Counted from the first letter of the stretch, positions 5,113 through 55,513 are shown. The stretch is 64,000 bases of DNA from an uncultured delta proteobacterium (GCA_963841435.1 CAWJCS010000005.1:448001-512000), one strand, 5' to 3'. A program made the numbers and translations. The notes: generated by a model not told the origin, from the letters alone.

Positions 5113-5127
5113 TGGCACGCTGGAGGC
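5113..5127 (+). promoter_or_regulatory. sigma54 -24/-12 promoter element
   Basis: TGGCACGCTGGAGGC (GG-N10-GC), just upstream of the RBS and start at 5146, after an AT-rich patch. Confidence 0.5.
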
Positions 5128-5145
5128 TCAAGGAAGGAGGTCACC

Positions 5146-5652
5146 GTGCGGCTCCTACTCACTGGACCGTCCGGCTCGGCTCGGATTTCGTGGAACCTTT
5201 ACGCCATGCTGCGTGACAACGTGCAGCATCACCTCGAAGAGGGCGCACCGAGCGCGAGGTTTCGCGCGCTCCACGCGCTCGAACAAGCCATCGACCGCGG
5301 CACGCACCAGGTCAACGCGGCCCGCCTGCGCGGGGAGGTCATGGGCGCCTGGTACGGCCTTTCGAAGCTCGGCGTCGGCGAAGCCGCCGTCAGCTTTCGC
5401 ACGCGCAGCATCATGACGGGCTGTCCCGCGCCGCCCGTCCAGCGCGGGACGGCGAAGCGTCGGCTCACGGGCTGGAGCCTGCCGGTGCCGGCGAGCAAGG
5501 AGGAGCCGTCGCTCGTCGAGCATGCGCTTGGTTTCGTCCTTGCCGTGCTCCGCATCACCGAGACGGCCGTCGATGGCGACGTGGTGGTCGTGACGCGCGA
5601 AGGCAGCGCTCCTCGCTTCGCTGCGGCCGCTCCGGCCAGCGCCGCCCGCTGA
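5146..5652 (+). CDS. hypothetical protein
   Basis: Strong RBS AAGGAGG before GTG; 168 aa with globular composition. Confidence 0.7.
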   Translation: MRLLLTGPSGSARISWNLYAMLRDNVQHHLEEGAPSARFRALHALEQAIDRGTHQVNAARLRGEVMGAWYGLSKLGVGEAAVSFRTRSIMTGCPAPPVQRGTAKRRLTGWSLPVPASKEEPSLVEHALGFVLAVLRITETAVDGDVVVVTREGSAPRFAAAAPASAAR

Positions 5653-5729
5653 GCCCCTCCGCGGAACGGCGCGCCTCGACCTCATTTCGGTGAGGAACCG
5701 GGGTCGCCTCAACCCATCGAGACTCCGCG

Positions 5730-6563
5730 CTAGCGGCGAGACGAGCGGCGCGGAACGCCGGCGCGCGAGAGCATCGCGACGGCGATCGCGACGACGAAGC
5801 CGATCGTGGCGTGCCCTAGCACGAGGTGCGAGCGCTCGTTCATCGGACAATGAAACAAGAGCGCCAGGTTGGCGACGAGGCCCGCGAGACCGCCTGCGAG
5901 CAACGCGTTGCCGAGGGGCAACCGTTCGTGACGCTCGACGCTCCAGGCGACGATCAGCACCGGGAGCGACAGCATCGCTCCGTACGAGAAGCAGCCGAAA
6001 GCGTGGCGCAGGAACGACGGGTCATGACCGACGGCGCTCGCCACGGGCTCCATCAGGCCGAGCGCGTAGAGCGCCGGTAGGACTAGCGCGACCAGCAGTG
6101 CCACGCCCTTGGCGGCGTCCGCGACCGCTGGGCGACCGGGCGACGGAAGCAGGAGCCGCACCATCGCGAGCGCTGCGAGCGAGAACAACGCGAGCCAGGT
6201 GGCGAGCGAGAGCGCGGGATAGGTCGCGAAGTCGGGCCGCAACTTGGCGGCGGCGGAGGCGACCCCGAGTGCGCCCGCAGCGACGAGCAACCCGCCGCGC
6301 ACGCGCGTGGGACGGCTTCGGAGCCAGGCACGCGGCCCCACCTCGGCGGTCAGCGAGCGCTCGAGCGACGCCCAGAGCTCCTTTTCCGGAGCCGGCACGG
6401 GCTCGTTCGACGCGAGCGCACGGCCGAGCTGCGCTTCGTCGGCGAAGAGCTCGGAGCAAGACTCACAGTCTGCCACGTGGTCGGATACCTCCGGACCCTC
6501 GGGAAGATGTCCGGCACGGAAAGCATCGCGAATCTCGGAGCAGCCCACGGGTCGTTCCGTCAT
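5730..6563 (-). CDS. membrane anti-sigma factor (ZAS motif, NrsF/DUF1109-like)
   Basis: HVADCESC zinc motif, several TM helices, FHCP...HLVLGH C-terminal motif; overlaps the sigma factor stop. Confidence 0.75.
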   Translation of the reverse strand: MTERPVGCSEIRDAFRAGHLPEGPEVSDHVADCESCSELFADEAQLGRALASNEPVPAPEKELWASLERSLTAEVGPRAWLRSRPTRVRGGLLVAAGALGVASAAAKLRPDFATYPALSLATWLALFSLAALAMVRLLLPSPGRPAVADAAKGVALLVALVLPALYALGLMEPVASAVGHDPSFLRHAFGCFSYGAMLSLPVLIVAWSVERHERLPLGNALLAGGLAGLVANLALLFHCPMNERSHLVLGHATIGFVVAIAVAMLSRAGVPRRSSRR

Positions 6564-7132
6564 ATGCCTGCTCCATGGGCTGGGTTACCGCCGTGCCGCG
6601 CGGCCCGGAGGTCGCCGAGCAGGGCGCGGAGCCCGTTGTAGCCGCGGTGGGCGCGCACTTTGGCGGCCGTGGCGCCGATTCCGAGGCACTCGGCAACCTC
6701 CGGAAACGAAAGGCCACCGAACCAGTGCAGCTCGATCACCTCGCGCTGGTCGGCGGGGATCTTCTCGAGCGCCCAGGAGAGCGTCTGCTGCGCCTCCGCG
6801 CGCTGCTGGCCGAGCGGCGGCACGGCGATCTCGACGGGAACCTCCCCGGCGGGCGCCTCGGGACGCCGCTTGCGGGAGCGGAAGTATTCCCGCTTGAGGT
6901 TCAAGGCGATGGTGAACATCCAGGGTTTGAAGCGCTGCGTATCGTCGAAGTCGAACCTCGCCCGATGCAGCTGTAAAAAAGCCTGCTGGACGAGGTCCTG
7001 CGCTATGTCGGGCTGGCGGAGATCCCGGGCCAAAAGACGCACGAGCACGCTCGCGTAGCGTTGAAAGAGCTCGCGAAAGGCGCCAGGGTCCCCTTCCCTG
7101 TAGGCGCGCATTAGCTCTTCGTCGGAACGCAT
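6560..7132 (-). CDS. ECF RNA polymerase sigma factor
   Basis: Region 2 DLVQQAFLQL..FKPWMFTIALN; region 4 LSFPEVAECLGI..AKVRAHR. Confidence 0.92.
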   Translation of the reverse strand: MRSDEELMRAYREGDPGAFRELFQRYASVLVRLLARDLRQPDIAQDLVQQAFLQLHRARFDFDDTQRFKPWMFTIALNLKREYFRSRKRRPEAPAGEVPVEIAVPPLGQQRAEAQQTLSWALEKIPADQREVIELHWFGGLSFPEVAECLGIGATAAKVRAHRGYNGLRALLGDLRAARHGGNPAHGAGI

Positions 7133-7248
7133 GGCGAACGCAGGGTACCCGCTCGGGACGCCCCGTCAGGTACGGTGGGCCCCCGCGGGCGGTTGCAACC
7201 GAACGTTCGATTCCACGAGGGCGCGCTCTTTTCCGGCGGCGGGCGCCC

Positions 7249-8889: not shown

Positions 8890-9422
8890 GCGCCGGCGTC
8901 GTGATTTGGGTCACGGGGCTGCCATCGGCGGGCAAGACGACGTTCGCGAAGCGCCTCGTCGAGGGCTTGCGCGCTCGCGGCGACGCCGCTTGCCTGCTCG
9001 ACGGCGACGCCGTGCGCGAGACGCTCGTGCCGAAGGTCGGCTACGCGCCCGAGGAGCGCGACGCCTTCTACGCGACGCTCGCCGGGCTCGCGGCGCTGCT
9101 GGCGAGCCAGGGACTCACGGCCGTCATCGCGGCCACGGCGCATCGGAAAGCGTTCAGAGAGCGTGCGCGCGCCCTGTCGCCGGCGTTCCTCGAGGTGTTC
9201 GTGGACACGCCGCTCGAGGAGTGCGAGCGACGCGACGCGAAGGGGCTCTACGACGAGAGCCGCGCCGGTAAGGTGCGAGCGCTGCCCGGCGCGGGCGCCG
9301 CCTACGAGCCTCCCGAGGCGCCCGACGTCGTGGCCCACGGCGGTCGCGACGCCGACGCCCTGGGGCGGGCGCTCGCGCAATCGGTGCGCTCGCACTCGGT
9401 CGATCCGAAGGGCGCGCACTAA
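8886..9422 (+). CDS. adenylylsulfate-kinase-like P-loop kinase
   Basis: [39 protein letters not shown] overlap with the upstream gene. Confidence 0.8.
9375..9389. promoter_or_regulatory. putative EBP enhancer palindrome (intragenic)
   Basis: GCGCA-ATCGG-TGCGC, perfect match, about 95 bp upstream of the sigma54 element at 9482. Confidence 0.55.
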
Positions 9423-9481
9423 TTACCGGTCGCTCAGGGCACGAGGCGCTCCCTCGTCGCTCTTCCGAAAAAAACCGCGAC

Positions 9482-9497
9482 TGGTACGAGCCTTGCT
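9482..9497 (+). promoter_or_regulatory. sigma54 -24/-12 promoter element
   Basis: TGGTACGAGCCTTGCT, near-consensus, upstream of the ABC operon. Confidence 0.7.
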
Positions 9498-9510: not shown

Positions 9511-10260
9511 GTGTCGCCGTTCGGTCGTGCCCCCACCGCCCTAGCCGGAGCCCCTTCGGATGCACTGCTTTCGTGCCAGGGGATCAAGAAGGTCTACCGC
9601 ATGGGGGAAGTCGACGTGCGGGCGCTCGATGGCGTGGATTTCGCGCTCAAGGGCGGCGAGCTTCTCGTGCTGCTTGGCGTTTCCGGCAGCGGAAAATCCA
9701 CGTTGCTCAACATCCTCGGGGGCCTCGACGTGCCGACCGAAGGCCGGGTGATCTTCGGCGACACCGAGCTCAGCGACGCGGACGAGGACGTGCTCACGGA
9801 CTACCGCCGCCACCACGTGGGCTTCGTGTTCCAGTTCTACAATCTGATTCCGAGCCTCACGGCGCGCGAGAACGTGGCGCTCGTCACGGATATTTCGGAC
9901 GACCCGCTCGATCCCGAAGAGGCCCTCGAGCTCGTGGGTCTCGGCGAACGGCTCGACCATTTCCCCGCGCAGCTCTCGGGCGGCGAGCAACAACGCGTGG
10001 CCATCGCGCGAGCGATCGCCAAACGGCCCTCGGTGCTGCTCTGCGACGAGCCGACCGGGGCCCTGGACTTTCGCACCGGCATCCTGGTTCTCGAGGTGCT
10101 CGAGCGCGTGAACGCAGAGCTCCGCACGGCGACGGCGGTCATCACGCACAACGCACCGATCGCCGACATCGCCGATCGCGTCGTGACGCTCGCCGACGGG
10201 CGCGTGCAGAGCGACCGCATGACGACCGACCGCGTGCACGCCCGAGACCTCAGGTGGTGA
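9511..10260 (+). CDS. ABC transporter ATP-binding protein (LolD/MacB-like)
   Basis: [34 protein letters not shown]. Confidence 0.92.
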
Positions 10261-10267
10261 GCGAGCC

Positions 10268-12637
10268 ATGTGGATGACGACGCTCGACAAGAAGCTCTTG
10301 CGCGAGACCTCGCGTCTCAAGGGGCAGATCATCACCATCGCGCTCGTGCTTGCGAGCGGAATCGTCTGCTTCATCTCCTTGCGCGGTTGCTATGCCTCGC
10401 TCCAGCGCGCGCGCGAGGCCTACTACGACCGCTATCGCTTCGCGGACGTGTTCGCGCGGGCGGAGCGTGTCCCCGAGGTCGTTGCACGCCGCATCGAGGC
10501 GCTGCCCGGCGTCCAGACCATCGAAACCCGCGTGGCCGAGGAGGTGACGCTGCCCATCGAGGGGATGCCGCGCCCGGCCTACGGGCGCCTCTTGTCCCTG
10601 CCCACCGCCCGCGAGCCCGCGACGAACGCCCTTTATCTTCGCCGCGGCAGGATGCCCGAGCGCGGGCGCGACGACGAGATCGTCGTGCTCGAGTCCTTCG
10701 CGGAAGCGCACGGGCTCGACCCGGGCCACCGCGTGCCGATCGTCTTGAACGGCAAGCGGCGCTCGTTTCGCGTCGTCGGCGTCGCGCTCTCGCCGGAGTT
10801 CGTGTACGCGATCCGCCCCGGCGCCATCGTCGACGATCCCAAGCGCCACGCGGTCTTGTGGATGGAGCGAACGGCGCTGGCGTCCGCCTTCGAGCTCGGC
10901 GGCGCTTTCAACGACGTGACGCTGAGGCTCGCGCCCAGTGCCTCCGAGCAGGCCGTGATGAAAGCCGTGGATCGCATCCTCGCCCCCTACGGAGGCACCG
11001 GCGCGATCGGGCGAAAGGACCAGATTTCGAACAAGATCGTCACCCAGGAGCTCGACCAGCTCCGCATGCTTTCGACGATGATCCCCGCGGTATTTCTGGG
11101 GGTCGCCGCGTTTCTGGTCAATCTCGTGCTCGGGCGCCTGATTCGCCTGCATCGCGGCGAGATCGCGACGCTGAAGGCCGTCGGGTACTCGAACGGCCAG
11201 GTGGGGCGCCACTACCTCGGGCTCGTGCTCGTCGTGCTCGTGCCCGGCAGCCTGCTCGGCGTGTTGCTCGGCATCGCGCTCGGCCGGCGCGTCCTCGCGC
11301 TCTACGCGGCGACCTTCCGCTTCCCGGACCTCGCCTTCGACGCGTCGCTGTCGCTCGTGGCGTCGGCCGTGCTCGTGAGCGGCGCCGCGGCGCTCGTGGG
11401 CGGGCTCGGCGCCGTCCGCTCGGCGATCAAGATGCCCCCCGCCGAGGCGATGCAGCCGCCGGCGCCAGCCCGCTACAGAAAGAGCCTGCTCGAGCGCTTC
11501 GGGCTCGGCATGCTCTTCGGCACGAGCGGCCTGATGATCCTGCGCGAGGTCGCGCGGCGCCCGCTGCGCACGCTGTTCTCGTCGCTCGGCGTCGCGGGCG
11601 CCGTGTCCTTGATGATCCTCGCGCACTTCGGCTGGGATTCGATCCTCGCCTACTTCGAGGGCACGTTTCGGCGCGAGCAACGGCAGGATCTTTCGGTGCT
11701 GTTCGCGAAGCCCGTGTCACCGCGCGTCGTGACGGAGCTGCGCGGCACGCCGGGGGTCATCAGCGCCGAAGGCGTACGCGCCGTCCCCGTGCGCATCAGT
11801 CATGAGCATCGCCAGCGCGACAGCGTGATCATGGGGCTGCCGCGCGGGGCGACGCTGCGCCGCCTCGTGGGGCGCGGCGGCAGCGAGGTGCGCCTGCCCG
11901 AGGACGGCATCGTGCTCGAAAAGACGCTCGGCCAGGTGCTGGGACTGCGCGTCGGCGACCGCGCCGAGATCGAGGTGCGCGAGGGCTCGCGCAAGACGGT
12001 GTACCCCGTCGTGGTCGGCTTCGTCGACGAGGCCGTGGGGCTCTCGATGTACGCGCAAGCGGGCTACGTGGCGTCGCTCGAGGGGGATCTGGGTGCCGTT
12101 TCGTCGGTGCTGCTGCGCGTGGATCCGCGCGAGGCGGATCGCATCGACGAGCGCCTGCGCCGCTCGCCGCGCATCATCGACGTATCGGACGTGACGGGCG
12201 ACATGCAGCGCATGCTCGACATGAACGCCTCGATCATGGACGTGTGGACGGCCGTTTCGATAGCGCTCGCGGCGAGCGTCGTGTTCGGCGTGGTCTACAA
12301 CAACGCACGAATCGGGCTGTCGGCACGCAGCCGTGACCTGGCGAGCCTGCGCGTGCTCGGCTTCACGCGCCGCGAGGTCTCGATCATCCTGCTCGGGGGC
12401 CAGGCGCTCGAGGTGGGGCTCGCCATCCCGATCGGGCTCTACCTCGGTCGCGCCTGGGCGCGCGCGTTCATGAAATCCGTGGATCAAGAGATGTATCGCT
12501 GGGCCGTGACGATCGCGCCGCGCACCTACCTGCTCTCGGCCTCCGTGACGCTTTTCGCGGCGGTGGTGAGCGGGCTTTGGGTGCGAAAAAGCCTCGACGA
12601 TCTCGACCTCGTCGGCGTGCTCAAGGCCAGAGAGTGA
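10268..12637 (+). CDS. ABC transporter permease, duplicated MacB/FtsX domains
   Basis: 789 aa with two periplasmic+FtsX halves ([22 protein letters not shown]). Confidence 0.9.
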
Positions 12638-12644
12638 GAGCAAC

Positions 12645-13952
12645 ATGAACCTTCTACCCGCCGAATCACCTTCGTCGCCGCGCGACGCGGCAAACGACGC
12701 ACCTCGCCGCGCCGAGCTCGACGCCAAGCGGCGCCACGCTCGCGAGCACCGCCGGCGCCTGGGCCGCAACGTTCGCTATGCGGTGCTCGGGTTGCTCGCC
12801 GCGGGCGCCGCCGTCGCCGCCGTGCTCGCGCTCAGGCCCCAACCCGTGCCGGTCGACGTTGCAGAGGTCGCACGCGGCACGCTGAGCGTCGCCATCGAGG
12901 AGAGCGGCGTCACGCGAGTGAAGGATCGCTTCGTGTTGTCGGCGCCCGTGACGGGCAGCGTGTCGCGGCTCGGGCTCGAGCCGGGCGATACCGTGAAAGC
13001 CGGCGATGCGCTCGCCGAGATAGCCCCCGCGCTGTCACCGCTGCTCGACGCGCGCACGCGCGCAGAAGCCGAGGCGCGGCTCGGGGCGGCGCTTTCCGCG
13101 CAGGGACAGGCCCGCGCCCAGGTGGCGCGCGCCAAGGTGGCCCAGGAACTCGCCGAGCAGGAGCTCGTGCGCGCGAAGAAGCTCGCTCAAACTCGCTCCA
13201 TCCCCGCGCAGGCGCTCGAGGAGGCGGAGTTCGTCACGCGCCTGCGCACCGAGGAGCTCCACTCGGCCGACTTCGCGAGCAAGGTGGCGACCGAGGAGGT
13301 GCGCGTCGCACGCGTTTCGCTCGGGCGCGATTCGAAGGGGGCCTCGACGACGGGTGATCGGCATGTCAACGTGCTCTCGCCCGTGTCCGGTCGCGTGCTC
13401 CGCGTCCACCAGAAGAGCGCGAGCGTGGTCCAGGCCGGCACACCGCTCGTCGAGGTCGGTGACCCGGAGCGACTCGAGGTCGTCGTCAACGTGCTCACGA
13501 CCGACGCGGTCCGCATCGCGCCGGGCACGCCCGTCGCGATCCGCGGCTGGGGTGGCGACCACGACGTCGCCGGTCGCGTGAGCCGCATCGAGCCCTCCGC
13601 GTTCACTCGTCCGTCGGCACTCGGTGTCGACGAGCAACGCGTCAACGTCGTCGTGGCCCTCACCGACCCGCGCGAGCGCTGGGCGAGCCTGGGCGACGGC
13701 TACCGGGTCGAGGCGCGGCTCGTGCTTTACCGGGCGGACGGCGTGCTCAAGGTGCCGCTCGGGGCGATCTTCCGGCGCGGCGACGGCTGGGCCGCCTACC
13801 GCGTCAACGGCGGCGTCGCGCACCTCGTCGACGTGAAGGTGGGACACCGCGGTGAGACCGAAGCCGAGCTCACCGGGTTGCCGCTCGGAGCGTCGGTTGC
13901 CGTGCACCCGGGCGATCGCGTCAAGGAGGGCGCACGCGTCGAGCCACGCTAG
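12645..13952 (+). CDS. periplasmic adaptor (HlyD/MacA family)
   Basis: N-terminal TM, lipoyl-like SAPVTG..GDTVKAG, helical hairpin, SALGVDEQRVNV. Confidence 0.88.
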   Translation: MNLLPAESPSSPRDAANDAPRRAELDAKRRHAREHRRRLGRNVRYAVLGLLAAGAAVAAVLALRPQPVPVDVAEVARGTLSVAIEESGVTRVKDRFVLSAPVTGSVSRLGLEPGDTVKAGDALAEIAPALSPLLDARTRAEAEARLGAALSAQGQARAQVARAKVAQELAEQELVRAKKLAQTRSIPAQALEEAEFVTRLRTEELHSADFASKVATEEVRVARVSLGRDSKGASTTGDRHVNVLSPVSGRVLRVHQKSASVVQAGTPLVEVGDPERLEVVVNVLTTDAVRIAPGTPVAIRGWGGDHDVAGRVSRIEPSAFTRPSALGVDEQRVNVVVALTDPRERWASLGDGYRVEARLVLYRADGVLKVPLGAIFRRGDGWAAYRVNGGVAHLVDVKVGHRGETEAELTGLPLGASVAVHPGDRVKEGARVEPR

Positions 13953-13997: not shown

Positions 13998-14108
13998 ACG
14001 CAGGTTCTGCGCCGCGGCCCGCAGGCAACGCAAGTTGCGCGGGAGGTTGCGCGTCGGGGGAGCGCGTCACGCCGGATTCAGGGTCTCGGGCGACGGCACG
14101 GTTTCTGC
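13998..14108 (+). promoter_or_regulatory. enhancer palindrome plus sigma54 promoter
   Basis: ACGCA-GGTTC-TGCGC at 13998-14012 and CGGCACGGTTTCTGC at 14094-14108. Confidence 0.6.
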
Positions 14109-14138
14109 TTCTGCAAGAGGTCAGGAGGTCCCGTCCCC

Positions 14139-14366
14139 ATGAAGTGCAACGTGAACCACCTCGACCGTGCCATCCGCCTCGGCGCAGGCATGTTCCTGCT
14201 CGCGACCCCGCTCCTCGATCTGCACACGTACCCGGTAAACCTTTTCGGGATCGTGCTGATCGGCACTGGGCTCGCAGGGTTCTGCCCGCTCTACGCCGCC
14301 ATCCGCGCGCTCGTGCCGAAGCGTGAGCACGGCCTGCGCGAGGCGCACGCCACCGTTCGCCACTGA
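14139..14366 (+). CDS. DUF2892/YgaP-like small membrane protein
   Basis: MKCNV..LDRAIR...GFCPLY signature; RBS AGGAGG. Confidence 0.85.
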   Translation: MKCNVNHLDRAIRLGAGMFLLATPLLDLHTYPVNLFGIVLIGTGLAGFCPLYAAIRALVPKREHGLREAHATVRH

Positions 14367-14424
14367 GCCACGAAGCGCGGCCGCGGGCGCCCCGTCAATC
14401 CCGATCGTGGCAGAGGGAAGCGCG

Positions 14425-16107
14425 ATGGGAAAGCTCCACCTCGCCCTGCTCTGGCATCAGCATCAGCCGCTCTACCGCGACCTCGGCCAGCGCGAGGCCG
14501 CGGGCGCCTACCGGCTGCCGTGGGTCCGTCTCCACGCCCTCCGCGACTATTACTCGATGGCCGCGCTCGCGGGGGCCCGGCCGGGGCTCGCGCTCACCAT
14601 CAATCTGACGCCCGTGCTGACGTGGCAGCTCGAGGACTACGCCGAGCGCGGCGCCACCGATCGCGCGCTCGAGCTCACTCTGAAGCGCGCCGAGACCCTC
14701 GATGCCGACGAGCGACACGAGATGCTCTCGACGTTCTTCCACGCCAGTGTCGAACGCCAAATCGCGCCGTATCCGCGCTACCACGAGCTCCTTCGGCGTC
14801 GTGACGAGCGGGCGCGCTTCGCCTCCGAAGATTTGCGCGACCTCGCGGCCTGGTTCAGCCTCGCCTGGTTCAACGAGGAGTTTCGCACCGGCGCCGTGCG
14901 CCTCGTGACGGGCGAAACGGCGAGCGTTGCGCGGTTCGTCGAGCAGGGCGGCGGTTTTTCGCCGGCCGATCTCGAATCGATCGTCGGCGAGCAGCAGAAG
15001 ATCCTCCGCGCTGTCATCCCGCTCCACCGCGCCCTCCAGGAAGCCGGCAGCATCGAGATCTCGACGACACCGTACTTTCACCCGATCTTGCCCATCCTCG
15101 TCGACAGCGACACGGCGACGCTCGACGCGCCGGGGAGTCGCCCCCGCCCCTTTCGACATCCGGAAGATGCTCGAGCCCAGATCGCTCTCGCGATCGAGCA
15201 CCACGTGGCGCTGTTCGGTGGGCGCCCTCACGGGATGTGGCCCGCCGAGGGTGCCGTGAGCCAGGCGACCGTCGGGCTCCTCGCCGAACAAGGCGTGACC
15301 TGGATCGCCACCGACCGGGGCGTGCTCGAGCGCTCGGGGCGCTTCGGCTACCGCGCCGACGACCCGAACGTGCTTTGCCGCCCGTACCGCGCCGAGGAGG
15401 GCGGCCAGGCGCTCGCGGTGTTTTTCCGCGAGCGCGAGCTGTCCGACAAGATCGGCTTCGACTACCACCGGTATGCCGACCAGGACGGCGCCGCGCGCGA
15501 GTTCATCGACCACCTGCACCGCGAGCTCCTCGACCGTCTCGACCCCGGCGAGGACCACGTGGTGTCGATCGTGCTCGATGGGGAGAACGCCTGGGGTGCC
15601 TACCCGCACGACGGACGGGATTTTCTGAGCGCTCTCTACGGCCGGGTCGTGGCCGATCCGGACATCGTTCCCACGACCTTTTCGGGATACCTCGCAGGAG
15701 ATGCCGCGCGCCCGCCGCACGGCCTCGCGGACCTCACGCGCGTTTACGACCTTTACACGGGCTCGTGGATCGACCAGGCGGGCTCTGCCCCGGGCGTCAA
15801 CCTCGGCACGTGGATCGGTCACGACGAGGAGAACCGAGCCTGGAACGCGCTCGGCGACGCACGCGACGCTCTCGAGCGGGCGGGCAAGACGCCCGAGAGC
15901 TTCCCCGCCGCATTCCACGCGCTCTATGCGGCCGAGGGCAGCGACTGGTTCTGGTGGTTCGGCGAGGATCAGGGCTCGGATTGGGATCCCGAGCTCGACG
16001 CGCTCTTCCGCGCACACGTGCGGCAGGCGTACCTCGAGGGCGGCCTGTCGCCGCCGGCAAGCCTCGAGCAGCCCATCGCCGCGCGACTGAGACACACGGG
16101 AAGCTGA
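14425..16107 (+). CDS. glycoside hydrolase family 57 (amylopullulanase-like)
   Basis: LWHQHQP, PWVRLH, GMWPAEG, VLDGENAW, AEGSDWFWW. Confidence 0.92.
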   Translation: MGKLHLALLWHQHQPLYRDLGQREAAGAYRLPWVRLHALRDYYSMAALAGARPGLALTINLTPVLTWQLEDYAERGATDRALELTLKRAETLDADERHEMLSTFFHASVERQIAPYPRYHELLRRRDERARFASEDLRDLAAWFSLAWFNEEFRTGAVRLVTGETASVARFVEQGGGFSPADLESIVGEQQKILRAVIPLHRALQEAGSIEISTTPYFHPILPILVDSDTATLDAPGSRPRPFRHPEDARAQIALAIEHHVALFGGRPHGMWPAEGAVSQATVGLLAEQGVTWIATDRGVLERSGRFGYRADDPNVLCRPYRAEEGGQALAVFFRERELSDKIGFDYHRYADQDGAAREFIDHLHRELLDRLDPGEDHVVSIVLDGENAWGAYPHDGRDFLSALYGRVVADPDIVPTTFSGYLAGDAARPPHGLADLTRVYDLYTGSWIDQAGSAPGVNLGTWIGHDEENRAWNALGDARDALERAGKTPESFPAAFHALYAAEGSDWFWWFGEDQGSDWDPELDALFRAHVRQAYLEGGLSPPASLEQPIAARLRHTGS

Positions 16108-16134: not shown

Positions 16135-16235
16135 CGGCACGGAATGCGCACCCGGACCCGAAACGAGACGTTTCTTGCACGCCGAGTGCCCCGGCGCGCG
16201 CCAACGCGCACGTCGCGCTTGGTACGCCTGTTGCT
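16135..16235 (+). promoter_or_regulatory. enhancer palindrome plus sigma54 promoter
   Basis: CGGCA-CGGAA-TGCGC at 16135-16149 and TGGTACGCCTGTTGCT at 16220-16235. Confidence 0.65.
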
Positions 16236-16247
16236 TACATCCGAGTC

Positions 16248-16550
16248 ATGGCGACCCACCGAGTCCAATCGACGCGCACCGACGCCGCCAAGCCACTGCG
16301 GGTGGCAGACGTGATGCGACATCACGTGGCGACGGTATCGCCCCGCACGAGCCTCGCGGAGGCCTCGCGGACGATGGAGGAGTGCGGCTGTGGCTTCCTG
16401 CCCGTCGTCGATGCGCACGGTGCGGTGTGCGGCGTGGTGACCGATCGCGACATCGTGGTGCGTGCCTGCGCGAAGGGGGCAAACGTCGCCGAAACCAGGG
16501 TCTCGGAGGTGATGACGGTCGACGTCGTGAGCTGCCCGGTTGGGCGCTGA
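16248..16550 (+). pseudogene. CBS-domain protein, truncated in the second CBS repeat
   Basis: LRVADVM...LPVVD...GVVTDRDIVVR...VSEVMTVDVVSC, then an early stop. Confidence 0.7.
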
Positions 16551-17271: not shown

Positions 17272-17280
17272 CGGCCCCCA

Positions 17281-22001: not shown

Positions 22002-22024
22002 CCGGTCGTGCCGCGTTCCCTCCT

Positions 22025-38534: not shown

Positions 38535-38542
38535 GAAGGACC

Positions 38543-39160: not shown

Positions 39161-39162
39161 CG

Positions 39163-44336: not shown

Positions 44337-44575
44337 GCGCAGACTTTGCGCGGAACCGACGCTGGCGGCTTCGCAAGCGAGCGTCGCGGGGATGACCGCA
44401 GCGCCCAGGGGAGAAGGCCTGGATTTTCTCACTCGCACTATCTGCGCGAGCGAGCCGGAGCGCCGTCTACTCGTGCACAATTTGCAGCCACGGACAGCAT
44501 CGGCGCAAACCTTGCCGCACCAGGCGAACCCGTGTGCGAGATCCTCCTACGATCGGCGCTGGCACGCGTGATGCA
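44337..44575 (+). promoter_or_regulatory. three enhancer palindromes plus sigma54 promoter
   Basis: GCGCA-GACTT-TGCGC (44337), GTGCA-CAATT-TGCAG (44473), GCGCA-AACCT-TGCCG (44503), TGGCACGCGTGATGCA (44560-44575). Confidence 0.72.
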
Positions 44576-44603: not shown

Positions 44604-45260
44604 ATGACCGACAAGCCCTATGCCATCGTTTGCGCCGTCGATTATTCCCAAGCGGGTGATCTTGCGCTCGAACGGGCGTTCGAGCTCACCTCGGAACGTC
44701 CGCTGGCGCGTCTTCACGTCGTCAACGTTCTCCCGGTCTACCAGCCCGGCACGGCCACGGACGCCGCGTGGAGCGGTGCGCTGCCGTCAGTAGCGCAGGC
44801 CGCGGAGGAGCTACGCGGGTACGTCGAGCGGAAGAAGGCCGAGTACCGGGCGGCTCACGCCGGCCAGAACCTTCAATTCCTCGACACCGTGCTCGCCCAC
44901 CAGCGGGTGGAAGCACCCGCAGAAGAGATCGCTCAGCTCGCCGCCGATCTGGAAGCCGACCTCGTGGTCGTGGGAACCCACGGGCGCCGCGGGCTATCGC
45001 GGCTCGTGCTCGGCTCGGTAGCGGAAGCCACCGTGCGTCTGGCGCCCTGCCCCGTGCTCGTCGTGCGGCCGAAGGCCGTGCCGGCGCCCGTCCCGGCGAT
45101 CCAGCCACCCTGCCCGGTTTGCGTGGAAACGCGCAAGGCGACCGGCGGCAAGGAGATGTGGTGCGAGCAGCACCGCGAGCACCACGGCCAGCGCCACACG
45201 TACCACCAGGGCGACCGCGGGGGCGCCGACACGAACATGCCGCTCGTCGTGCACAGCTAG
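44604..45260 (+). CDS. universal stress protein with Cys/His-rich C-terminal extension
   Basis: RBS AAGGAG; USP motifs VVGTHGR..LGSVAE..APCPV; tail CPVC..WCEQH..HH..HTYH. Confidence 0.88.
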   Translation: MTDKPYAIVCAVDYSQAGDLALERAFELTSERPLARLHVVNVLPVYQPGTATDAAWSGALPSVAQAAEELRGYVERKKAEYRAAHAGQNLQFLDTVLAHQRVEAPAEEIAQLAADLEADLVVVGTHGRRGLSRLVLGSVAEATVRLAPCPVLVVRPKAVPAPVPAIQPPCPVCVETRKATGGKEMWCEQHREHHGQRHTYHQGDRGGADTNMPLVVHS

Positions 45261-49215: not shown

Positions 49216-49674
49216 CTACGACGGCGGCTCGGGCTCCCCGAGGTATTCGGCGAGCATGGCGGCCTCGGCGCGCTCGTGAACGCGAAATCGCGCGACGAGC
49301 TCGACAGCCCCTGCGGCGAGCGACTCCCCACCGTCGTCCATCCTCGTGAGCGAATCGAGGTGCGCCAGGGAATCGCGCATCGCGGCATGATCGGCCCTGA
49401 GGTCGACGATCGCCGGCAAGAGCGACGGCCGATCCGCCGAGATCGTCTCGAAGTGCGCCGGCCCTTCCTCGGCGGCGAAGTGCTCCTCGAGCTCTAGGCG
49501 CGAGAGGCGCAAGAGGCCGTGCAGGGACTCGGTGGGGTCCGTCGGCCGGCGCTCGAGGTCGAGCACCGTGCGCGCTGCCTCGTCGAGGCGATGCAGCAGA
49601 GCCGCGAGGCTCTGGTGCTGGGCGTGCACGAGCGTGAGGCGGCCGAAGAGGCTCGGTGGCGTGTATCCCATCAT
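49216..49674 (-). CDS. hemerythrin-like (HHE) domain protein
   Basis: QH, EHFAAEE, DH, VHERAE: metal-ligand pattern of a four-helix bundle. Confidence 0.75.
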   Translation of the reverse strand: MMGYTPPSLFGRLTLVHAQHQSLAALLHRLDEAARTVLDLERRPTDPTESLHGLLRLSRLELEEHFAAEEGPAHFETISADRPSLLPAIVDLRADHAAMRDSLAHLDSLTRMDDGGESLAAGAVELVARFRVHERAEAAMLAEYLGEPEPPS

Positions 49675-49810: not shown

Positions 49811-49937
49811 AGCACGAGGCATGCCAGCGGCCCGTCCTTCGCGCCGCGCTCGCACGCTATGCACAAAGCTCGCAACGCTGCCGAGGAGCGCCTGGCGCCA
49901 CGCGACGCAGCACTCGTGGAGCGCGCAGAATCTGCCG
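49811..49937 (-). promoter_or_regulatory. sigma54 promoter plus enhancer palindrome
   Basis: Minus strand TGGCATGCCTCGTGCT (49826-49811) and GCGCA-GAATC-TGCCG (49923-49937). Confidence 0.6.
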
Positions 49938-50033
49938 CTCCGAAGCGTCTTCGCGCGAGATGCGCGTGCGTATTTCGACACCCGTCGGGTTTACCGAGTG
50001 AAGAGAGGACTTACGTTGCCCGCTAGAAGGATC

Positions 50034-51164
50034 ATGCGCGACGAGAAGAAAGAGCCTGCGGCGATTTTGATCGTCGACGACAACGCGGACAATCGCGCGC
50101 TCGCGAGCGCGACGCTCGAGGGCGAAGACTACCGCGTCGCTTCGGTATCGAGCGGCGAAGAGGCGCTGCGCGCCCTCGGAGAGGACCACTTCGACTGCGT
50201 GCTTCTCGACGTGCGCATGCCGGGAATGGACGGGTTCGAGGTATGCTCGCGCATTCGAGCGCTGCCTGGGGGCTCGCAGCTGCCCGTCGTGTTCCTCACC
50301 GCGCTGCGCGACGTTGACACCTTCGATGCCGCCGTCCGGGCAGGCGGCGACGACTTTCTCACGAAGCCCGTGCGCCCCACCGAGCTCGCGCTGCGCGTGC
50401 AGTCGGCACTGCGCCTGCGTCGACTCCACGCGACGAGCCAGGAGTACTACGAGCTGGCGCGCCGGCAGCGCGACGACCTCCTGCGCCTGCAGCTCCAGCA
50501 AGAGCGCCTCATGGCGTTCGTCGTTCACGACCTCAAAAACCCGGTCAGCACCGTGGATCTGCACGCCCAGCTGCTGCTGCGCGACAAGGAGCTGCCCGAG
50601 CGGCTGCGCCCCGCCGCTCAGGGCATCCGCGACGAGGTGCGAAGCCTCATGCGGCTCATCGTCAACCTGCTCGACATCAGCAAGGGCGAGGAAGGCAAGC
50701 TCACTCCGAATGCTGTCACGGTCGAGCTCGAACGGCTCGCGGGCGAGGTGCTCGAGTCAGTGAGCCCCATCGCGCGCACCGCCGAGGTAGCGCTCGAGCT
50801 CCGGCTCGAGGCCGCCGCGGCCAAGGCGGATCCGGACCTTTTGCGACGCGTCCTCGAGAACCTCGTGGAGAACGCCGTGCGCCACGCGCCCGAAGGCTCG
50901 ACCGTGCGGGTGACGAGCCGGGCCGCCGACGGTGGCGTCGAGATTCGCGTGGCGGACGAGGGACCGGGCGTTCCCGAGAACCTTCGCGAGGCCATCTTCG
51001 ATCGCTTCGTGCAGGGCGCCTCCGCCAAGCGCACGGCTCGCTCGGGGCGCGGGCTCGGGCTGGCTTTTTGCCGCATGGCAGCCGAGGCGCACGACGGTCG
51101 CATCTGGATCGAGGACGGCGCGCCCGGCGCGGTCTTCGCAGTATGGTTGCCCGATGGCGAGTGA
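50034..51164 (+). CDS. hybrid response regulator-histidine kinase (REC-HisKA-HATPase)
   Basis: IVDD..LDVRMP; HDLKNP; NLVENA, DEGPG, GLGL; no sensor domain. Confidence 0.92.
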
Positions 51165-53124
51165 CGACGCGACCTCCGGGGTCGCCACGTTCGGCGACCA
51201 GCTCTTTCAGCGACTCCTCGAAACCGCGCCCGATGCCATCGTCGTCGTCGACAGGAACGGCCGCATCGTGCTCGTCAACGCCCAGACCGAGCGCCTCTTC
51301 GGTCACCGCCGCGAGGAGCTCATCGATGCCTCCGTCGAAGTCCTGATCCCGAACCGTTATCGGGACACGCATCCGATCCACCGCCGCGGCTACGGCGCCG
51401 GTCCGGTCCCGCGCGGCATGGGCTCGGGGGTCGAGCTCTACGGGCTACGCAAGGACGGCAGCGAGTTTCCCGTCGAGATCAGCCTGAGCCCGCTGGAAAC
51501 GCCGAGCGGCCTGCTCGTCTCGAGCGCCATTCGTGACATCAGCGATCGCAAGCGCGCCGAGGCCACGGCGCGCCTCGCCACGGATCGCCTGCTCAGCGCG
51601 ATCGAGAGCATCCAGGGAGGCCTCTCGCTCTTCGATGCCCGCGATCAGCTGGTCCTTTGCAACAGTGCGTGCCGCGAGCTCTTCGGGTCTGGCATCGAGG
51701 GGGCCATCGTCGGGCGCACGTTCGCGGAGATCCTCGACGCGAACCTCGACGCCGGCTTCTTCGAGCTCGGCGACGAGCCGCCGGAGGCCTTCCGGGCGCG
51801 CGCGCTCGCGTACCACGAAAACCCCATTGGCTCGCTCGACGTGAAAACCAGCGACGGGCGCAGCCTGCGCCTCACGCACCGGCGCACCCTCGAGGGCGGC
51901 ATCGTCTCAACGGCGCTCGACATGACGGAGGACGCCGCGCACGAGGCGGAGCTCAAGCGCGCTCACCAGCAGGCCGAGGCGGCCAACGCGGCCAAAAGCG
52001 AGTTTCTTGCCTCGATGAGCCACGAGCTCAGAACACCGCTGAACTCCGTGCTCGGGTTCGCGCAGCTGTTGCAGCTCGATAAGAAGACCCCACTCAACGA
52101 GCGCCAGCGCGAGAAAGTGGACCACGTCATCAAGGGCGGCGAGCACCTCCTGCACCTCATCGACGACATTCTCGATCTGTCGCGCATCGAGGCCGGACGC
52201 GTGCTCATCTCGCCGGAGACGGTGGGAGTCGCCGAGGTGTTGCTCGAGGTGCAATCGACGCTCGACCCGATGGCGGAGCGCGCCGGCGTGAGCTTCACCG
52301 TGGCCCCGCTGCCCTCGACCGCGCTCGACGTGATCGCGGACCGCACCCGTTTTTCGCAGATCCTCATCAACTACGGCTCGAACGCCATCAAGTACGGACA
52401 GCCGGGCGGCCACGTCGTTTTGCGCGTGTCGATGCCCACTCCGAGCTGCATTCGCGTCGGCGTCGTCGACGACGGCATGGGTATCCCTCGGGAGCATCAA
52501 GAGAAGATCTTTCAGCCGTTCCATCGCGCGGGTCAGGAGACGGGGCCAATCCAGGGAACCGGCATCGGGCTCGCCATCACGAAGCGCCTCGCCGAGCTCA
52601 TGGGGGGCACGGTCGGATTCGCGAGCACTCCCGGCGAAGGCTCCGAGTTCTGGGTGGAGCTCCCCGTGCCTGCCGTCGCGCCGAGCTCGCCACCGCCGCG
52701 AGCCCAGGTACGCGCCGCACGCTCCGCGATCGAAGGCGCCAGTCGGTCGTTCACGATCGTGTACATCGAAGACAACCCTTCGAACATCGCGTTCATGCAG
52801 GAGCTCGTCGCCGAGCTCGAGCCCGTGACGCTGATCCCAGCGCCCACGGCAGAGGTCGGTATCGCCATCGTGCGCGCCAAACTGCCCGACGTCGTCATCA
52901 TGGACATCAACCTGCCCGGCATGAGCGGCTACGAGGCGACGCACCAGCTCGCGGAGTGGCCCGAGACGCGCGACATCCCCGTGATTGCGCTCACGGCCGC
53001 CGCCATGCTCGGTGATCGCAGGCGCGCGGAGCAGACCGGCTTTTACCGCTATCTCACGAAGCCCGTGAAGGTTCCGGAGCTGCTTCAGACGCTCGAAGAG
53101 ATCTTCAGCGGCGCCGACGATTGA
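51154..53124 (+). CDS. cytoplasmic PAS-PAS hybrid histidine kinase with C-terminal REC
   Basis: PAS/PAC ([14 protein letters not shown]), [24 protein letters not shown]. Confidence 0.92.
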
Positions 53125-54315
53125 TCAGCTCACGGCGAGCCCGAGCTCGTGCAGCGCGCGACGCAGCTCGTCCCCCGAGGCAGGCAGCATCGCGCCCAGG
53201 CGACGCGCATGCGTCCCGAGCCAGGGCGGAGCGTCGGGCAAGAGGTCGTATTTCACGTGGAAGCCGAGCAGCTTGTGCCACTCGCGCTGGTGGCGGGCGC
53301 CGTAGCCTTCGAGCAGGCCGACGTTGCTGCCATGGGACACGCAGGCGACGATGCGCTCGATGAAATCGTGGGCCTCGAACAAGCCGTTGTTCATGCTCTG
53401 CGCGCCGAACGGGCTCGTCACGTGCGCGGCGTCTCCCGCGAGCCACACCCGACCGCTGCCGAAACGCCGTACCAGGCGTCGCTCGAACTGGATGACCGAG
53501 CCCCAGTCGACGCGGCTCGCGCCATCCGGGTAAAAGGGAATGCGCTCGCGCGCGAGGCCCTTTAGTCGAGCAAGATCGGGCAACACGTCGAGGCCCTGGT
53601 CGATCTGGAAGCCGAGCCGCGCGCGGCCGCCCGTGAGCGGCACGACGGCCGACGCCAGGCTGCCCGCGAGGACGAGCTCCATACGCTCGCCCGGATCCTC
53701 CTCGACGGGCGCTTCGAACATCGCGAACGTTTCGGTGCGTCCGAGCTCCGCCGCCTCGATGCCCAGCGCGGAGCGGATGCGCGATTCGTAGCCGTCCGCG
53801 CCGAGCACGAAGTCGGCCGTCACCTGCGACGATTCGACGGGCTCCCACTCGCTGTAGTCGGCCGGCGAGCCGTGGCGGGCGAGCTCTCGGCGCACGAGCC
53901 GCACCTCGACGTTGGCAGCGCTCTGGCGCAGCGTCGTCGCCTGGAAGGGCGCAAGGAGCTCGACGTTCGCCTCGCGGAGCGCCGTCAAGAGCTCCTCCTC
54001 GAGCACGGCCTGAGGCACGGCAAGGGCCGGGGACGAAAGCGCTAGCTCCACGGGATCTTGGTCGTCGGCGCGCAGGCGCACCGTCCGCACGGGACGCCCG
54101 ACCTCGCGCAGGCGGTGGCCGACTCCGGCATCCGCAAGCAGGCCGACCGAGCGCGGATGCAGCAGCGTGGCGTAGCCGCGGCCCCAACCACGGAAGGTCT
54201 GATCGATCACCTCCACCTCGAGGCCGGCGCGAGCTGCTTCGAGCGCCGCGAACATACCCACGGGGCCTGCGCCCACGACGAGGAGCTGGACTGAGCGATC
54301 GCGCGCGGTGGCCAT
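53125..54315 (-). CDS. FAD-dependent monooxygenase (UbiH/PheA-like)
   Basis: VVGAGPVG, GADG..SRIR, LAGDAAH..SPFGAQSMN. Confidence 0.85.
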   Translation of the reverse strand: MATARDRSVQLLVVGAGPVGMFAALEAARAGLEVEVIDQTFRGWGRGYATLLHPRSVGLLADAGVGHRLREVGRPVRTVRLRADDQDPVELALSSPALAVPQAVLEEELLTALREANVELLAPFQATTLRQSAANVEVRLVRRELARHGSPADYSEWEPVESSQVTADFVLGADGYESRIRSALGIEAAELGRTETFAMFEAPVEEDPGERMELVLAGSLASAVVPLTGGRARLGFQIDQGLDVLPDLARLKGLARERIPFYPDGASRVDWGSVIQFERRLVRRFGSGRVWLAGDAAHVTSPFGAQSMNNGLFEAHDFIERIVACVSHGSNVGLLEGYGARHQREWHKLLGFHVKYDLLPDAPPWLGTHARRLGAMLPASGDELRRALHELGLAVS

Positions 54316-54335
54316 GACCTCAGTCCCTGCATGGG

Positions 54336-54538
54336 AGCAAAGATCGGGCCGAGGCCGCGTCTCACGTCTTTCCCCCTATGAAGGCCGAGGCAGCGACGCG
54401 GCCTGGAAAAAACCGCGCCGGCTGCGCAAATGTTGCGCCGGCGTGACCGGCCGACGCAGCCGTTGCCGCACGTCGCCTCGGCAACGAGCCCCGGGATCCG
54501 AAGGGGCCCCGGCGAGAACGCTTGGATCGAAGCTTGCT
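54336..54538. promoter_or_regulatory. divergent sigma54 promoters with paired central enhancers
   Basis: Minus strand CGGCCCGATCTTTGCT (54351-54336), GCGCA-AATGT-TGCGC (54424), ACGCA-GCCGT-TGCCG (54454), plus strand TGGATCGAAGCTTGCT (54523-54538). Confidence 0.7.
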
Positions 54539-54564
54539 ACCAGCTATCCCCAAGCCCACACGCG

Positions 54565-55020
54565 ATGACCATCCGGCGCATCCTCGTCCCCGTCAACTAC
54601 TCGGCCTGCTCGCTCGAGGCGCTGCGTTATGCCGCGGAGCTTGGGCGGACCCTGCGCGCGACGATCGACGTGGTGCACGCCTGGGATCGGCCCACCTACG
54701 TTTCCGACGCCGTGATGGTCCGCCACCCCGACGGCGGCTCGCGCTCGCTCGCCGACATGATCCGGGCGAACGCCGAGTCCGATATGGACAGTTTCCTCGC
54801 GACGGCGAACCTCGGACCCGATCTGCTCGGAGAGCGCCGGTTGATTTCGGGCGACCCCACGGGCAGGGTGCTCGAGGAGCTCGCCAAGGGCACGCACGAT
54901 CTCGTCGTCGTCGGAACCCACGGCCGCACGGGACTGGGGCACGCGCTGCTCGGCAGCTTCGCCGAAAAGCTCGTACGCCTCTCGCCCGTCCCCGTGTTGA
55001 CCGTCCGACAGCCCAAGTAG
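54565..55020 (+). CDS. universal stress protein
   Basis: RILVPVNYS...VVGTHGRTG..LGSFAEKLVRLSPVPV. Confidence 0.92.
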   Translation: MTIRRILVPVNYSACSLEALRYAAELGRTLRATIDVVHAWDRPTYVSDAVMVRHPDGGSRSLADMIRANAESDMDSFLATANLGPDLLGERRLISGDPTGRVLEELAKGTHDLVVVGTHGRTGLGHALLGSFAEKLVRLSPVPVLTVRQPK

Positions 55021-55063
55021 TCCTCCGCTCGCACGTTGCTGTCCGAAGCCTTGGAGCACGACC

Positions 55064-55513
55064 ATGTACAAGATTGGCAAGATTCTGGTCCCGGTTGACT
55101 TTTCTTCCTGCTCTCGAGCAGCGCTCGAGCATGCCCTCGCGATCGCCCAGACCGTGGGCGCCAAGGTCGACGTGCTTCACGTCATCGAAATTCCGTATTT
55201 CAGGGAAGAACCGCAGGTCACGTCGTCGAGCGGAACGGCCTCATTGGGCGACTATGCGCTCGCCGCGGCCAAAGCCGAGCTCGACGAGTTCCTCGGACAG
55301 CTGCCAGCCGACAGTCGCTCGAAGCTCACGGCCTACGTCGCCGTGGGGCGACCGCGAGACACGATCCTCGAGCACGCGGCGAAGGGCTACGACCTGATCG
55401 TCGCCGGGACGCACGGTCGCACCGGGCGCGCCCACTCCTTTGCGGGCAGCCTCGCGGAAAGCTTGGTCCGCAGCGCGACGTGCCCCGTCCTCACGGTGCG
55501 CGAGCCCGACTGA
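55064..55513 (+). CDS. universal stress protein
   Basis: KILVPVDFS...AGTHGRTG..GSLAESLVRSATCPV. Confidence 0.92.
   Translation: MYKIGKILVPVDFSSCSRAALEHALAIAQTVGAKVDVLHVIEIPYFREEPQVTSSSGTASLGDYALAAAKAELDEFLGQLPADSRSKLTAYVAVGRPRDTILEHAAKGYDLIVAGTHGRTGRAHSFAGSLAESLVRSATCPVLTVREPD

Follow-up and report, generated by a model that had tools for sequence, protein, structure and literature searches.

The question raised by the DNA analysed here (C5:448001-512000, a stretch of 64,000 nucleotides hereafter called the window, from a 95% complete genome of 7.78 Mb in 6 contigs with 68.7% GC) is whether its many sigma-54-type promoter elements, together with a recurrent GCGCA-N5-TGCGC palindrome, make up the regulon of one enhancer-binding protein (EBP), encoded at 30156-31556, and which signal this activator would obey. 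In Myxococcus xanthus the same palindrome was defined by electrophoretic mobility shift assay (EMSA) and reporter mutagenesis as the site of NmpR (McAllister et al. 2025, PMC11841059), an activator for which the available text of that paper reports sigma-54 dependence, a preferred gap of 14-15 nt between sites, autoregulation and hypoxic induction, including that of mxan_4236. A preliminary description of the window had named this consensus as that of NmpR, with the cbb3 oxidase as a regulon member, and in this it agrees with the available text of PMC11841059, which also gives the paired sites and the sigma-54 dependence. Our analysis indicates that the core of a sigma-54 regulon of the NmpR type probably lies in the window. 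Established in silico are the activator's clade and, for the sites, their presence, enrichment, conservation and phasing; that the activator binds them is predicted from these results. The nearest named relatives of the activator gene are found in metagenome-assembled genomes of Polyangiaceae, Polyangiales, Myxococcales and Nannocystaceae, and the source is therefore taken to be a myxobacterium (Myxococcota) outside Myxococcus.

Chance was assessed by shuffles of the window and by the density of sites across the whole genome. Perfect copies of the palindrome lie at 9375, 31737, 41747, 44337 and 54424, that at 31737-31751 being additional to the four previously listed, as compared to a mean of 0.76 in the shuffled window (five or more in 0 of 100 shuffles) and to 0.62 expected per 64 kb from the 76 copies in 7.78 Mb. 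The variant copies listed in the preliminary description are likewise all present, with one mismatch at 13998 and 21914, two at 16135, 16734, 16764, 31696, 44503 and 49923, and three at 41716, 44473 and 54454. At such GC content mismatch tallies alone are nearly uninformative, with 19 one-mismatch copies in the window versus 13.3 expected and 169 two-mismatch copies versus 139 expected from genome density, and for this reason a core-intact criterion was adopted, namely retention of GCA-N5-TGC, which the M. xanthus authors describe as decisive (PMC11841059, available text). Genome-wide there are 1610 such core-intact palindromes, and the signal comes from core-keeping sites and their position, not from bare mismatch tallies.

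Sigma-54-like sites were scored on the 8 flank positions of TGGCACG-N4-TTGCW around GG-N10-GC, and the upstream region of each was searched for a palindrome with its centre 20-160 nt ahead of the GG. All 14 GG-N10-GC elements that had been proposed as promoters are present, 13 of them matching at least 6 of 8 flank positions, and the window total at this threshold is 16 versus 5.8 expected from genome density (703 genome-wide). At least one core-intact palindrome lies upstream in 13 of the 14, whereas 1000 dinucleotide shuffles gave a mean of 0.585 and a maximum of 4 (binomial p ~3e-17 versus genome density); in the comparison with shuffled DNA by which the preliminary description could have been refuted, the palindrome is thus far commoner near these promoters. 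The element without such a palindrome is that at 5113, already singled out as lacking one, which is consequently unsupported as a regulon member. The supposed plus-strand promoter at 31735 (TGGCGCAGGACATGCG) matches only 4 of 8 flank positions and, because it overlaps the fifth perfect palindrome and lies with site 31696 upstream of the minus-strand promoter at 31616, is read as an enhancer site and not as a promoter.

The spacing of sites and promoters is regular. Across the genome, correctly oriented palindromes are most frequent at 60-120 nt ahead of a sigma-54-like site, where successive 20-nt bins hold 10, 13 and 10 of them versus a background of ~3. Of the 51 promoter-enhancer pairs, 12 fall within the window, although it makes up only 0.8% of the genome. 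The commonest offset between partner sites is 29-31 nt (11 counts versus ~0-1 for each other offset), with smaller peaks at 21 and 42 nt, that is, at whole helical turns; the offset of 29-31 nt equals the 14-15 nt gap given for M. xanthus NmpR in the available text of PMC11841059. In symmetrised form the site is GCGCA-(A/G)(A)N(T)(T/C)-TGCGC. Within the window, palindrome centres stand 50-120 nt ahead of the GG in 12/12 modules, the promoters of which score 6-7 of 8 flank positions, and seven modules carry a weaker second site at 28-31 nt (13998/14028, 16734/16764, 21914/21943, 41747/41716, 44503/44473, 49923/49951 and 54424/54454). From element to start codon the distance is 28-60 nt in 11 of the 12, several with a Shine-Dalgarno sequence, and 152 nt for hemerythrin. 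The genome also encodes rpoN, at C6:1626847.

The activator carries D54 and V87, the residues at which M. xanthus NmpR was mutated (D54A/E and V87E; PMC11841059, available text). To represent NmpR, a proxy set was defined by synteny, following the available text of PMC6211767 and PMC11841059, as EBPs adjoining a protoglobin histidine kinase. Eight of ten protoglobin loci fetched from the phylum encode an EBP that is 57-70% identical to the activator over its full length, and reciprocal searches of two such EBPs against the genome returned the activator first (70% versus 47%, and 60% versus 46%, for the next best). In a quick maximum-likelihood tree of 38 rows, made up of 14 relatives and 24 own-genome EBP segments with at least 324 aligned residues (from 52 PF00158 matches, shorter segments being left out), the activator and all 14 relatives together make up a clade of 15 (SH-aLRT 99), from which each of the 23 paralogues is excluded. 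A recognition helix of the form ISxRK(I/V)QY(K/R) is common to this clade, as compared to the usual R-x-TLYRKL of the paralogues, and identity in the helix-turn-helix (HTH) is 55-75% inside the clade and 23-50% to own-genome paralogues. On the strength of reciprocal best hits, the tree and this distinctive DNA-reading helix, the activator is assigned to the NmpR clade. Its own gene appears to be autoregulated, with sites at 31696 and 31737 and a -24/-12 element at 31616, 60 nt ahead of its start codon.

Twelve promoter modules between 9375 and 54538 are predicted to head about 28 genes, the genes of the window having been curated with Pfam and NCBIfam and the putative extents of operons derived from gene spacing. 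The modules, the genes assigned to them and the neighbouring regulatory genes are as follows (USP, universal stress protein; PFOR, pyruvate:ferredoxin/flavodoxin oxidoreductase).

5113..5128, plus strand: sigma-54-like element with no core-intact palindrome, unsupported as a regulon member.
9375..9497, plus strand: exporter module, with a perfect site at 9375-9389 and the -24/-12 element TGGTACGAGCCTTGCT at 9482-9497.
9511..13952, plus strand: ABC ATPase, FtsX-type permease and HlyD-type adaptor, a MacAB-like exporter (Pfam/NCBIfam), start codon uncertain.
13998..14109, plus strand: YgaP-like/GH57 module, with a site at 13998-14012 (1 mismatch) and the -24/-12 element at 14094-14109.
14139..16107, plus strand: YgaP-like membrane protein, then GH57 glycoside hydrolase (Pfam).
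16135..16235, plus strand: module of a small CBS-domain protein, with a site at 16135-16149 (2 mismatches) and the -24/-12 element at 16220-16235.
16248..16550, plus strand: small CBS-domain protein, downstream of the 16220 promoter.
16734..16835, plus strand: module of a CBS-pair protein, with sites at 16734-16748 and 16764-16778 (30 nt apart) and the -24/-12 element at 16820-16835.
16860..17432, plus strand: CBS-pair protein (Pfam).
17281..21818, minus strand: nifJ-type PFOR, then dihydroorotate-dehydrogenase-like protein (NCBIfam).
21856..22002, both strands: divergent PFOR/CoA-transferase module, with -24/-12 elements at 21871-21856 (minus, PFOR) and 21987-22002 (plus, CoA-transferase).
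22025..25647, plus strand: acetyl-CoA hydrolase/CoA-transferase fused to a Pat-like GNAT domain, AAA_28 protein and 6-phosphofructokinase (Pfam/NCBIfam).
30156..31556, minus strand: NmpR-clade EBP of 466 aa, with REC, sigma-54 AAA+ and Fis-type HTH domains (Pfam).
31601..31751, minus strand: autoregulatory module, with the -24/-12 element CGGCACGATTTTCGCT at 31616-31601 and sites at 31696-31710 (2 mismatches) and 31737-31751 (perfect).
31790..32245, divergent from the activator gene: CBS gene with no assigned promoter.
32306..41624, minus strand: putative 10-gene cbb3 operon (Pfam, NCBIfam), delimited by overlapping or abutting open reading frames (ORFs).
41639..41761, minus strand: cbb3 module, with the -24/-12 element at 41654-41639, a perfect site at 41747-41761 and a weak partner at 41716-41730 (31 nt offset).
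44337..44575, plus strand: USP module, with four sites (44337, perfect; 44433; 44473; 44503) and the -24/-12 element at 44560-44575.
44604..45260, plus strand: USP (Pfam).
49216..49674, minus strand: hemerythrin gene, with a 5' leader of ~125 nt.
49811..49965, minus strand: hemerythrin module, with the -24/-12 element at 49826-49811 and sites at 49850, 49923 and 49951.
50034..51164, plus strand: REC-HisKA-HATPase kinase (Pfam).
51154..53124, plus strand: PAS(haem-type)-PAS-HisKA-HATPase-REC hybrid kinase (Pfam).
53125..54315, minus strand: FAD-dependent monooxygenase of the UbiH/aromatic hydroxylase family (Pfam/NCBIfam).
54336..54538, both strands: divergent FAD monooxygenase/USP module, with -24/-12 elements at 54351-54336 (minus) and 54523-54538 (plus).
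54565..55513, plus strand: two USP genes (Pfam).

The two divergent modules each share their sites between both promoters: PFOR and CoA-transferase have in common the site at 21914-21928 (1 mismatch) with a weak partner at 21943-21957, and the FAD monooxygenase and USP genes the perfect site at 54424-54438 with a partner at 54454-54468 (30 nt offset). PFOR scores above the cut-off of its model (TIGR02176, 1589 bits with a cut-off of 911), as does the dihydroorotate-dehydrogenase-like protein (NF005741, 419 bits with a cut-off of 303). The protein encoded opposite PFOR (22025-23875), a CoA-transferase with a C-terminal GNAT domain that resembles the protein acetyltransferase Pat, is an unusual fusion. 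In the putative cbb3 operon the order is fused ccoNO, ccoQ, ccoP, ccoG, ccoH, a DsbD_2-like gene, ccoI (Cu P-type ATPase), ccoS, a CBS gene and thioredoxin 2. Divergent from ccoNO is a type II (Ca/Mg-like) P-type ATPase gene (41818-44310), which starts 57 nt past the perfect site at 41747; since M. xanthus NmpR controls a P-type ATPase ahead of cbb3, what is seen here may be left over from such an arrangement, or the gene may have a different promoter. The exporter palindrome at 9375-9389 lies within the 3' end of an upstream APS-kinase-like gene. Phosphoenolpyruvate (PEP) synthase (45672-47804) and a 418-aa gene of unknown function (47863-49119) may be co-transcribed with the USP gene at 44604-45260. 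The PEP synthase ORF begins at about position 85-89 of the NCBIfam/TIGR models and only 30 further codons are open upstream (stop-to-stop from 45582), so that the protein seems to be short of ~55 N-terminal residues or to have an unusual start.

Comparison with relatives extends these findings to other genomes, as the preliminary description had suggested should be examined. An nmpR orthologue of the same family (L111) is preceded by two perfect sites 29 nt apart and a -24/-12 element, with similar layouts in L112 and L001, and a CBS gene in L118 likewise has paired sites and a -24/-12 element upstream. The neighbourhood of nmpR, with cco, USP and CBS genes, is retained in relatives as well. 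For ccoNO, 18 of 20 relatives' loci were examined, two cut at the 5' end having been dropped. Ahead of fused ccoNO (78-80% identity) a site is present at -80 to -170 in 6/6 loci, with one mismatch at most in 5/6 and a -24/-12 element at about -30 in 4/6; ahead of separate ccoN (65-70% identity) a site was seen in only 1 of 12 loci, at -366. The family thus holds two kinds of cbb3 oxidase (loci L168-L185), and NmpR-type sites with -24/-12 elements go with the fused form. In G321, of the same genus, sites are kept ahead of ccoNO (a perfect site with a partner 29 nt away) and of the counterpart of the USP gene at 44604-45260, which is itself retained there. PFOR is patchily distributed (11 of 40 other family genomes); of the relatives' 13 loci, 11 entered the comparison after removal of a fragment and of a locus truncated at its 5' end, and a core-intact site with one mismatch at most lies within 400 nt upstream in 5/11, as compared to ~0.03 expected per locus. 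The earlier proposal that the regulon reaches fermentation genes is backed by these retained PFOR sites. A search of the literature returned nothing relevant on PFOR under sigma-54 control in myxobacteria, and a term search of the available text of PMC11841059 gave no mention of ferredoxin or phosphofructokinase (PFK).

Beyond the window, candidate modules stand ahead of three CBS genes and of genes for pyruvate phosphate dikinase (PPDK), glycogen phosphorylase, a cupredoxin, an S30AE/hibernation-factor-like protein, an alpha/beta hydrolase and a SpoIIAA-like protein, and some precede unrelated genes, the assignment of downstream genes to genome-wide promoter pairs being approximate. Chance would account for about 20 of the 39 outside pairs, which puts the share of real regulon promoters held by the window at roughly 40%; with members elsewhere in the genome, the window is therefore a dense cluster and not the whole regulon. 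The earlier picture of one co-regulated island of ~50 kb is borne out in its essentials, with limits: 12 modules do extend from 9375 to ~55513, but about one third of the genes in this span have no module (two ECF sigma/anti-sigma pairs, a Rieske gene, APH- and APS-kinase-like genes, the type II P-type ATPase and the two histidine kinases), and members also occur outside it. The two ECF sigma genes (5730-7132 and 26117-27858), each beside an anti-sigma-like gene (NrsF-like and FecR-like), are without NmpR-type modules. A mobile origin for the cluster was considered and is unsupported, with no tRNA genes, an even GC content of 0.64-0.74 and relatives that keep the neighbourhood of nmpR described above. 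Elsewhere, the S30AE/ribosome-hibernation-factor-like gene at C6:811956 (L131 1473-1850) has a sigma-54-like element (7/8) with a palindrome 89 nt upstream, and ~1.3 kb from it lies a divergent alpha/beta-hydrolase gene with two sites 29 nt apart.

Several observations weigh against the assignment of these modules to an NmpR-type regulon, or narrow it. The putative orthology of the activator to MXAN_4240 rests on synteny-defined proxies, and about half of the outside promoter pairs are attributable to chance, as calculated above. Palindromes lie near the CBS gene at 31790, the P-type ATPase at 41818, the kinases at 50034 and the USP gene at 7788, yet a search for -24/-12 elements at these four and at the PEP synthase gene at 45672 gave none above 4/8. 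For the USP gene (7249-7788, minus strand) the palindrome is a one-mismatch copy at 7858-7872 (ACGCAGGATTTGCGC), 70 nt upstream, and it sits in the 5' part of a plus-strand ORF (7405-8889, APH-family kinase), the true start of which is probably at ~7800. In addition, modules with two or three mismatches (16135, 49850/49923 and the three-mismatch partners) could fail as predicted binding sites, as M. xanthus NmpR left five of ten predicted imperfect-site promoters unbound (PMC11841059, available text).

If the activator is of the NmpR type, its input has to be sought, as the M. xanthus relay consists of NmpU (a protoglobin kinase), NmpT (REC-REC, a phospho-sink), NmpS (a REC-kinase) and NmpR (Bretl et al. 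2018, PMC6211767, available text). Protoglobin (PF11563) gave no match in the 95% complete genome of 6 contigs, although 20 of the 23 genomes sampled from the same family have one. Searches of this genome with the L111 proteins, which are encoded contiguously as nmpU-T-S-R, gave only kinase-domain matches of 30-40% and thus no orthologue of NmpU, NmpT or NmpS. The REC-kinase at 50034-51164, of the same architecture as NmpS, was rejected as its orthologue on account of 33% identity, a place outside the six best matches of NmpS and a different phosphotransfer helix (DHp) region; a search for an NmpS-like kinase through the DHp motif returned a single generic NtrB-like match at C4:349876 and was uninformative.

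Next to the hemerythrin module, the pair formed by this REC-kinase and the hybrid kinase offers another route. The first PAS domain of the hybrid kinase matches the haem domains of FixL and DosP (phmmer E 2e-15 to 8e-10) and is a predicted haem PAS, its histidine in RDTHPIH aligning with that in RSRHDSY of FixL, which we take to be the haem ligand (BjFixL His200). The pair is kept as a unit in 10/10 family loci and adjoins an NmpR-clade EBP in two of these (G321 and G331). No FixJ-like gene was seen beside the pair in the window, the rest of the genome not having been searched for one. Speaking against the pair as the sensor, the EBPs linked to such pairs form a subclade of their own and the activator groups with the nmpUTS-linked subclade, and the DHp region of the REC-kinase is unlike that of NmpS. 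On balance the kinase pair (50034-53124) is the favoured input to the activator, a choice made tentatively and with the scales close to level. The EBPs beside the pair in G321 (contig C254, L165) and G331 (L196) are 56-58% identical to the activator, with a similar recognition helix; G321 has no closer match to the activator and no PFOR, and a protoglobin ORF lies elsewhere in its genome. In locus L116 a globin kinase is joined directly to an NmpS-like module next to the EBP, and the sensor modules attached to this regulon evidently differ from lineage to lineage.

Three other accounts of the cluster were weighed. One, that both the palindromes and the GG-N10-GC strings are functionless products of chance at high GC, draws on the abundance of loose matches at 69% GC (16,929 with two mismatches and 1,616 with one genome-wide, the window being only 1.2-1.4x expectation) and on 98 matches to TGGCAC-N5-TTGC with two mismatches at most versus 55 expected; it is contradicted by the shuffle and genome-density controls, by the set distance and orientation of sites to promoters and start codons, by the 29-31 nt pairing and by conservation across genera, and its probability is negligible. 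That the palindrome is read by some other regulator, either another of the ~40 EBPs or a dimeric factor that is not an EBP, with the activator acting elsewhere, is very improbable. The genome does contain 52 PF00158 matches, with one EBP (C5:344892) 3 kb from the outside promoter C5:341702 and another beside C2:802362, but the motif equals the EMSA-proven NmpR site (PMC11841059, available text), sites stand upstream of the activator's own gene here and in three relatives, and the recognition helix is common to the NmpR clade and unlike that of all own-genome paralogues.

Another rival keeps the same activator and modules and changes the signal, which would then be energy or redox state, NO or CO, starvation or dormancy, thereby making hypoxia island a misnomer. 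FixL/DosP-type haem-PAS domains can also respond to NO, CO and redox state, the genome yielded neither a protoglobin kinase nor an NmpU, NmpT or NmpS orthologue, and the regulon includes a ribosome-hibernation-like gene; it is also rich in USP and CBS proteins, which the discussion in the available text of PMC11841059 treats as reporters of nucleotide and energy status. However, the cbb3 oxidase, hemerythrin, PFOR and FixL-like PAS together point to oxygen. PFOR is an oxygen-labile enzyme. Hypoxic induction dependent on NmpR is moreover published for M. xanthus (PMC11841059, available text), and a signal other than oxygen is on these grounds judged unlikely. Oxygen control of the NmpR-type regulon is what we infer from homology with M. 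xanthus NmpR and from gene content.

The mechanism we propose for this regulon would run as follows. Low oxygen would lead to phosphorylation of the activator (NtrC family) on D54, upon which it would bind GCGCA-N5-TGCGC, often as a strong site with a weaker partner 29-31 nt away; with bound centres ~50-120 nt upstream of -24/-12, looping would allow the AAA+ ring to act on sigma-54 RNA polymerase and open it at the 12 promoters. The predicted targets are its own gene, the 10-gene cbb3 operon, PFOR, the CoA-transferase/GNAT fusion with PFK, GH57, the MacAB-like exporter, hemerythrin, the FAD monooxygenase, three USP genes and three CBS genes, a fourth CBS gene (31790-32245) having no assigned promoter; elsewhere in the genome CBS proteins, PPDK, glycogen phosphorylase, the cupredoxin and the ribosome-hibernation-factor-like gene would be added. 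Switched on by low oxygen, the regulon would give rise to high-affinity respiration, glycogen-fed glycolysis, oxidation of pyruvate to acetyl-CoA and acetate, and a stress or dormancy state.

A bolder version joins two changes: loss of the NmpU-T-S relay, with the FixL-like haem-PAS hybrid kinase and the REC-kinase feeding the activator instead, and growth of the regulon into an anoxia-survival programme. Such a programme would combine glycogen breakdown, glycolysis through PFK, PPDK and PEP synthase, PFOR and CoA-transferase to supply acetate and substrate-level ATP, ribosome hibernation, and USP and CBS proteins as energy sensors. That both hold together is a possibility about which we are doubtful; if true, a DosR-like dormancy and fermentation regulon would exist within a group commonly held to be strictly aerobic.

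With these findings NmpR, a regulator described as late as 2025 and for a single species, is extended to a further family of myxobacteria, with the DNA site, the pairing of sites and the core targets conserved across genera, and the 12 promoters provide a concrete and testable list. The added targets (PFOR, CoA-transferase, PFK, glycogen enzymes and hibernation factor) suggest that in some soil myxobacteria the activator controls a fermentative or dormancy response to loss of oxygen, which bears on the persistence of supposed aerobes in waterlogged soil. With no globin relay found and a FixL-like kinase nearby, the locus would present a natural case of the exchange of a sensor module on a fixed regulon.

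Among known systems the closest is the NmpR regulon of M. xanthus, which comprises 7 promoters and 23 genes: pilR, the CBS-led nmpR operon, nmpUTS, USP, P-type ATPase with cbb3, and hemN-hemerythrin (PMC11841059, available text). Common to both are an NtrC-like activator with D54 and V87, paired GCGCA-N5-TGCGC sites upstream of sigma-54 promoters, autoregulation (predicted here from the sites), and cbb3 oxidase, USP, CBS and hemerythrin targets. The system described here is a variant of it in three respects, namely tight clustering, a larger and fermentation- or dormancy-flavoured set of targets with retained PFOR sites, and a globin relay that was not found. Thus 12 promoters and ~28 genes lie within 46 kb, unlike the scattered promoters of M. 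xanthus; PFOR, the CoA-transferase/GNAT fusion, PFK, GH57 and the ABC exporter are new as predicted targets in the window, as are PPDK and glycogen phosphorylase outside it; no NmpU, NmpT or NmpS orthologue was found; and nmpR seems to form a transcription unit of its own, divergent from a CBS gene, as compared to its place inside a CBS-led operon in M. xanthus.

The rhizobial FixL-FixJ-FixK system (fixNOQP) resembles the locus in having a haem-PAS histidine kinase near a cbb3 operon with fixGHIS-type assembly genes, and would share with it the induction of high-affinity respiration at low oxygen. Its output differs, being FixJ/FixK with FNR-type boxes and not a sigma-54 activator with enhancers, and the kinase here is of the hybrid type, ends in a REC domain, has a REC-kinase as its partner and would be linked to the activator only as a candidate. 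The DosR/DevR dormancy regulon of Mycobacterium tuberculosis, which is cited in the discussion of PMC11841059 (available text), is similar as a hypoxia-type, USP-rich set that includes metabolic down-shift genes and is driven by haem-sensor kinases. DosR itself belongs to the NarL type, works with sigma-70, reads another motif and has no sequence relationship to the activator described here. In comparison with NtrC and glnAp2, the recognition helix, motif and physiological signal are different, whereas the architecture is alike, with a REC-AAA+-Fis HTH activator and tandem dyads ~100 nt upstream of a GG-N10-GC promoter.

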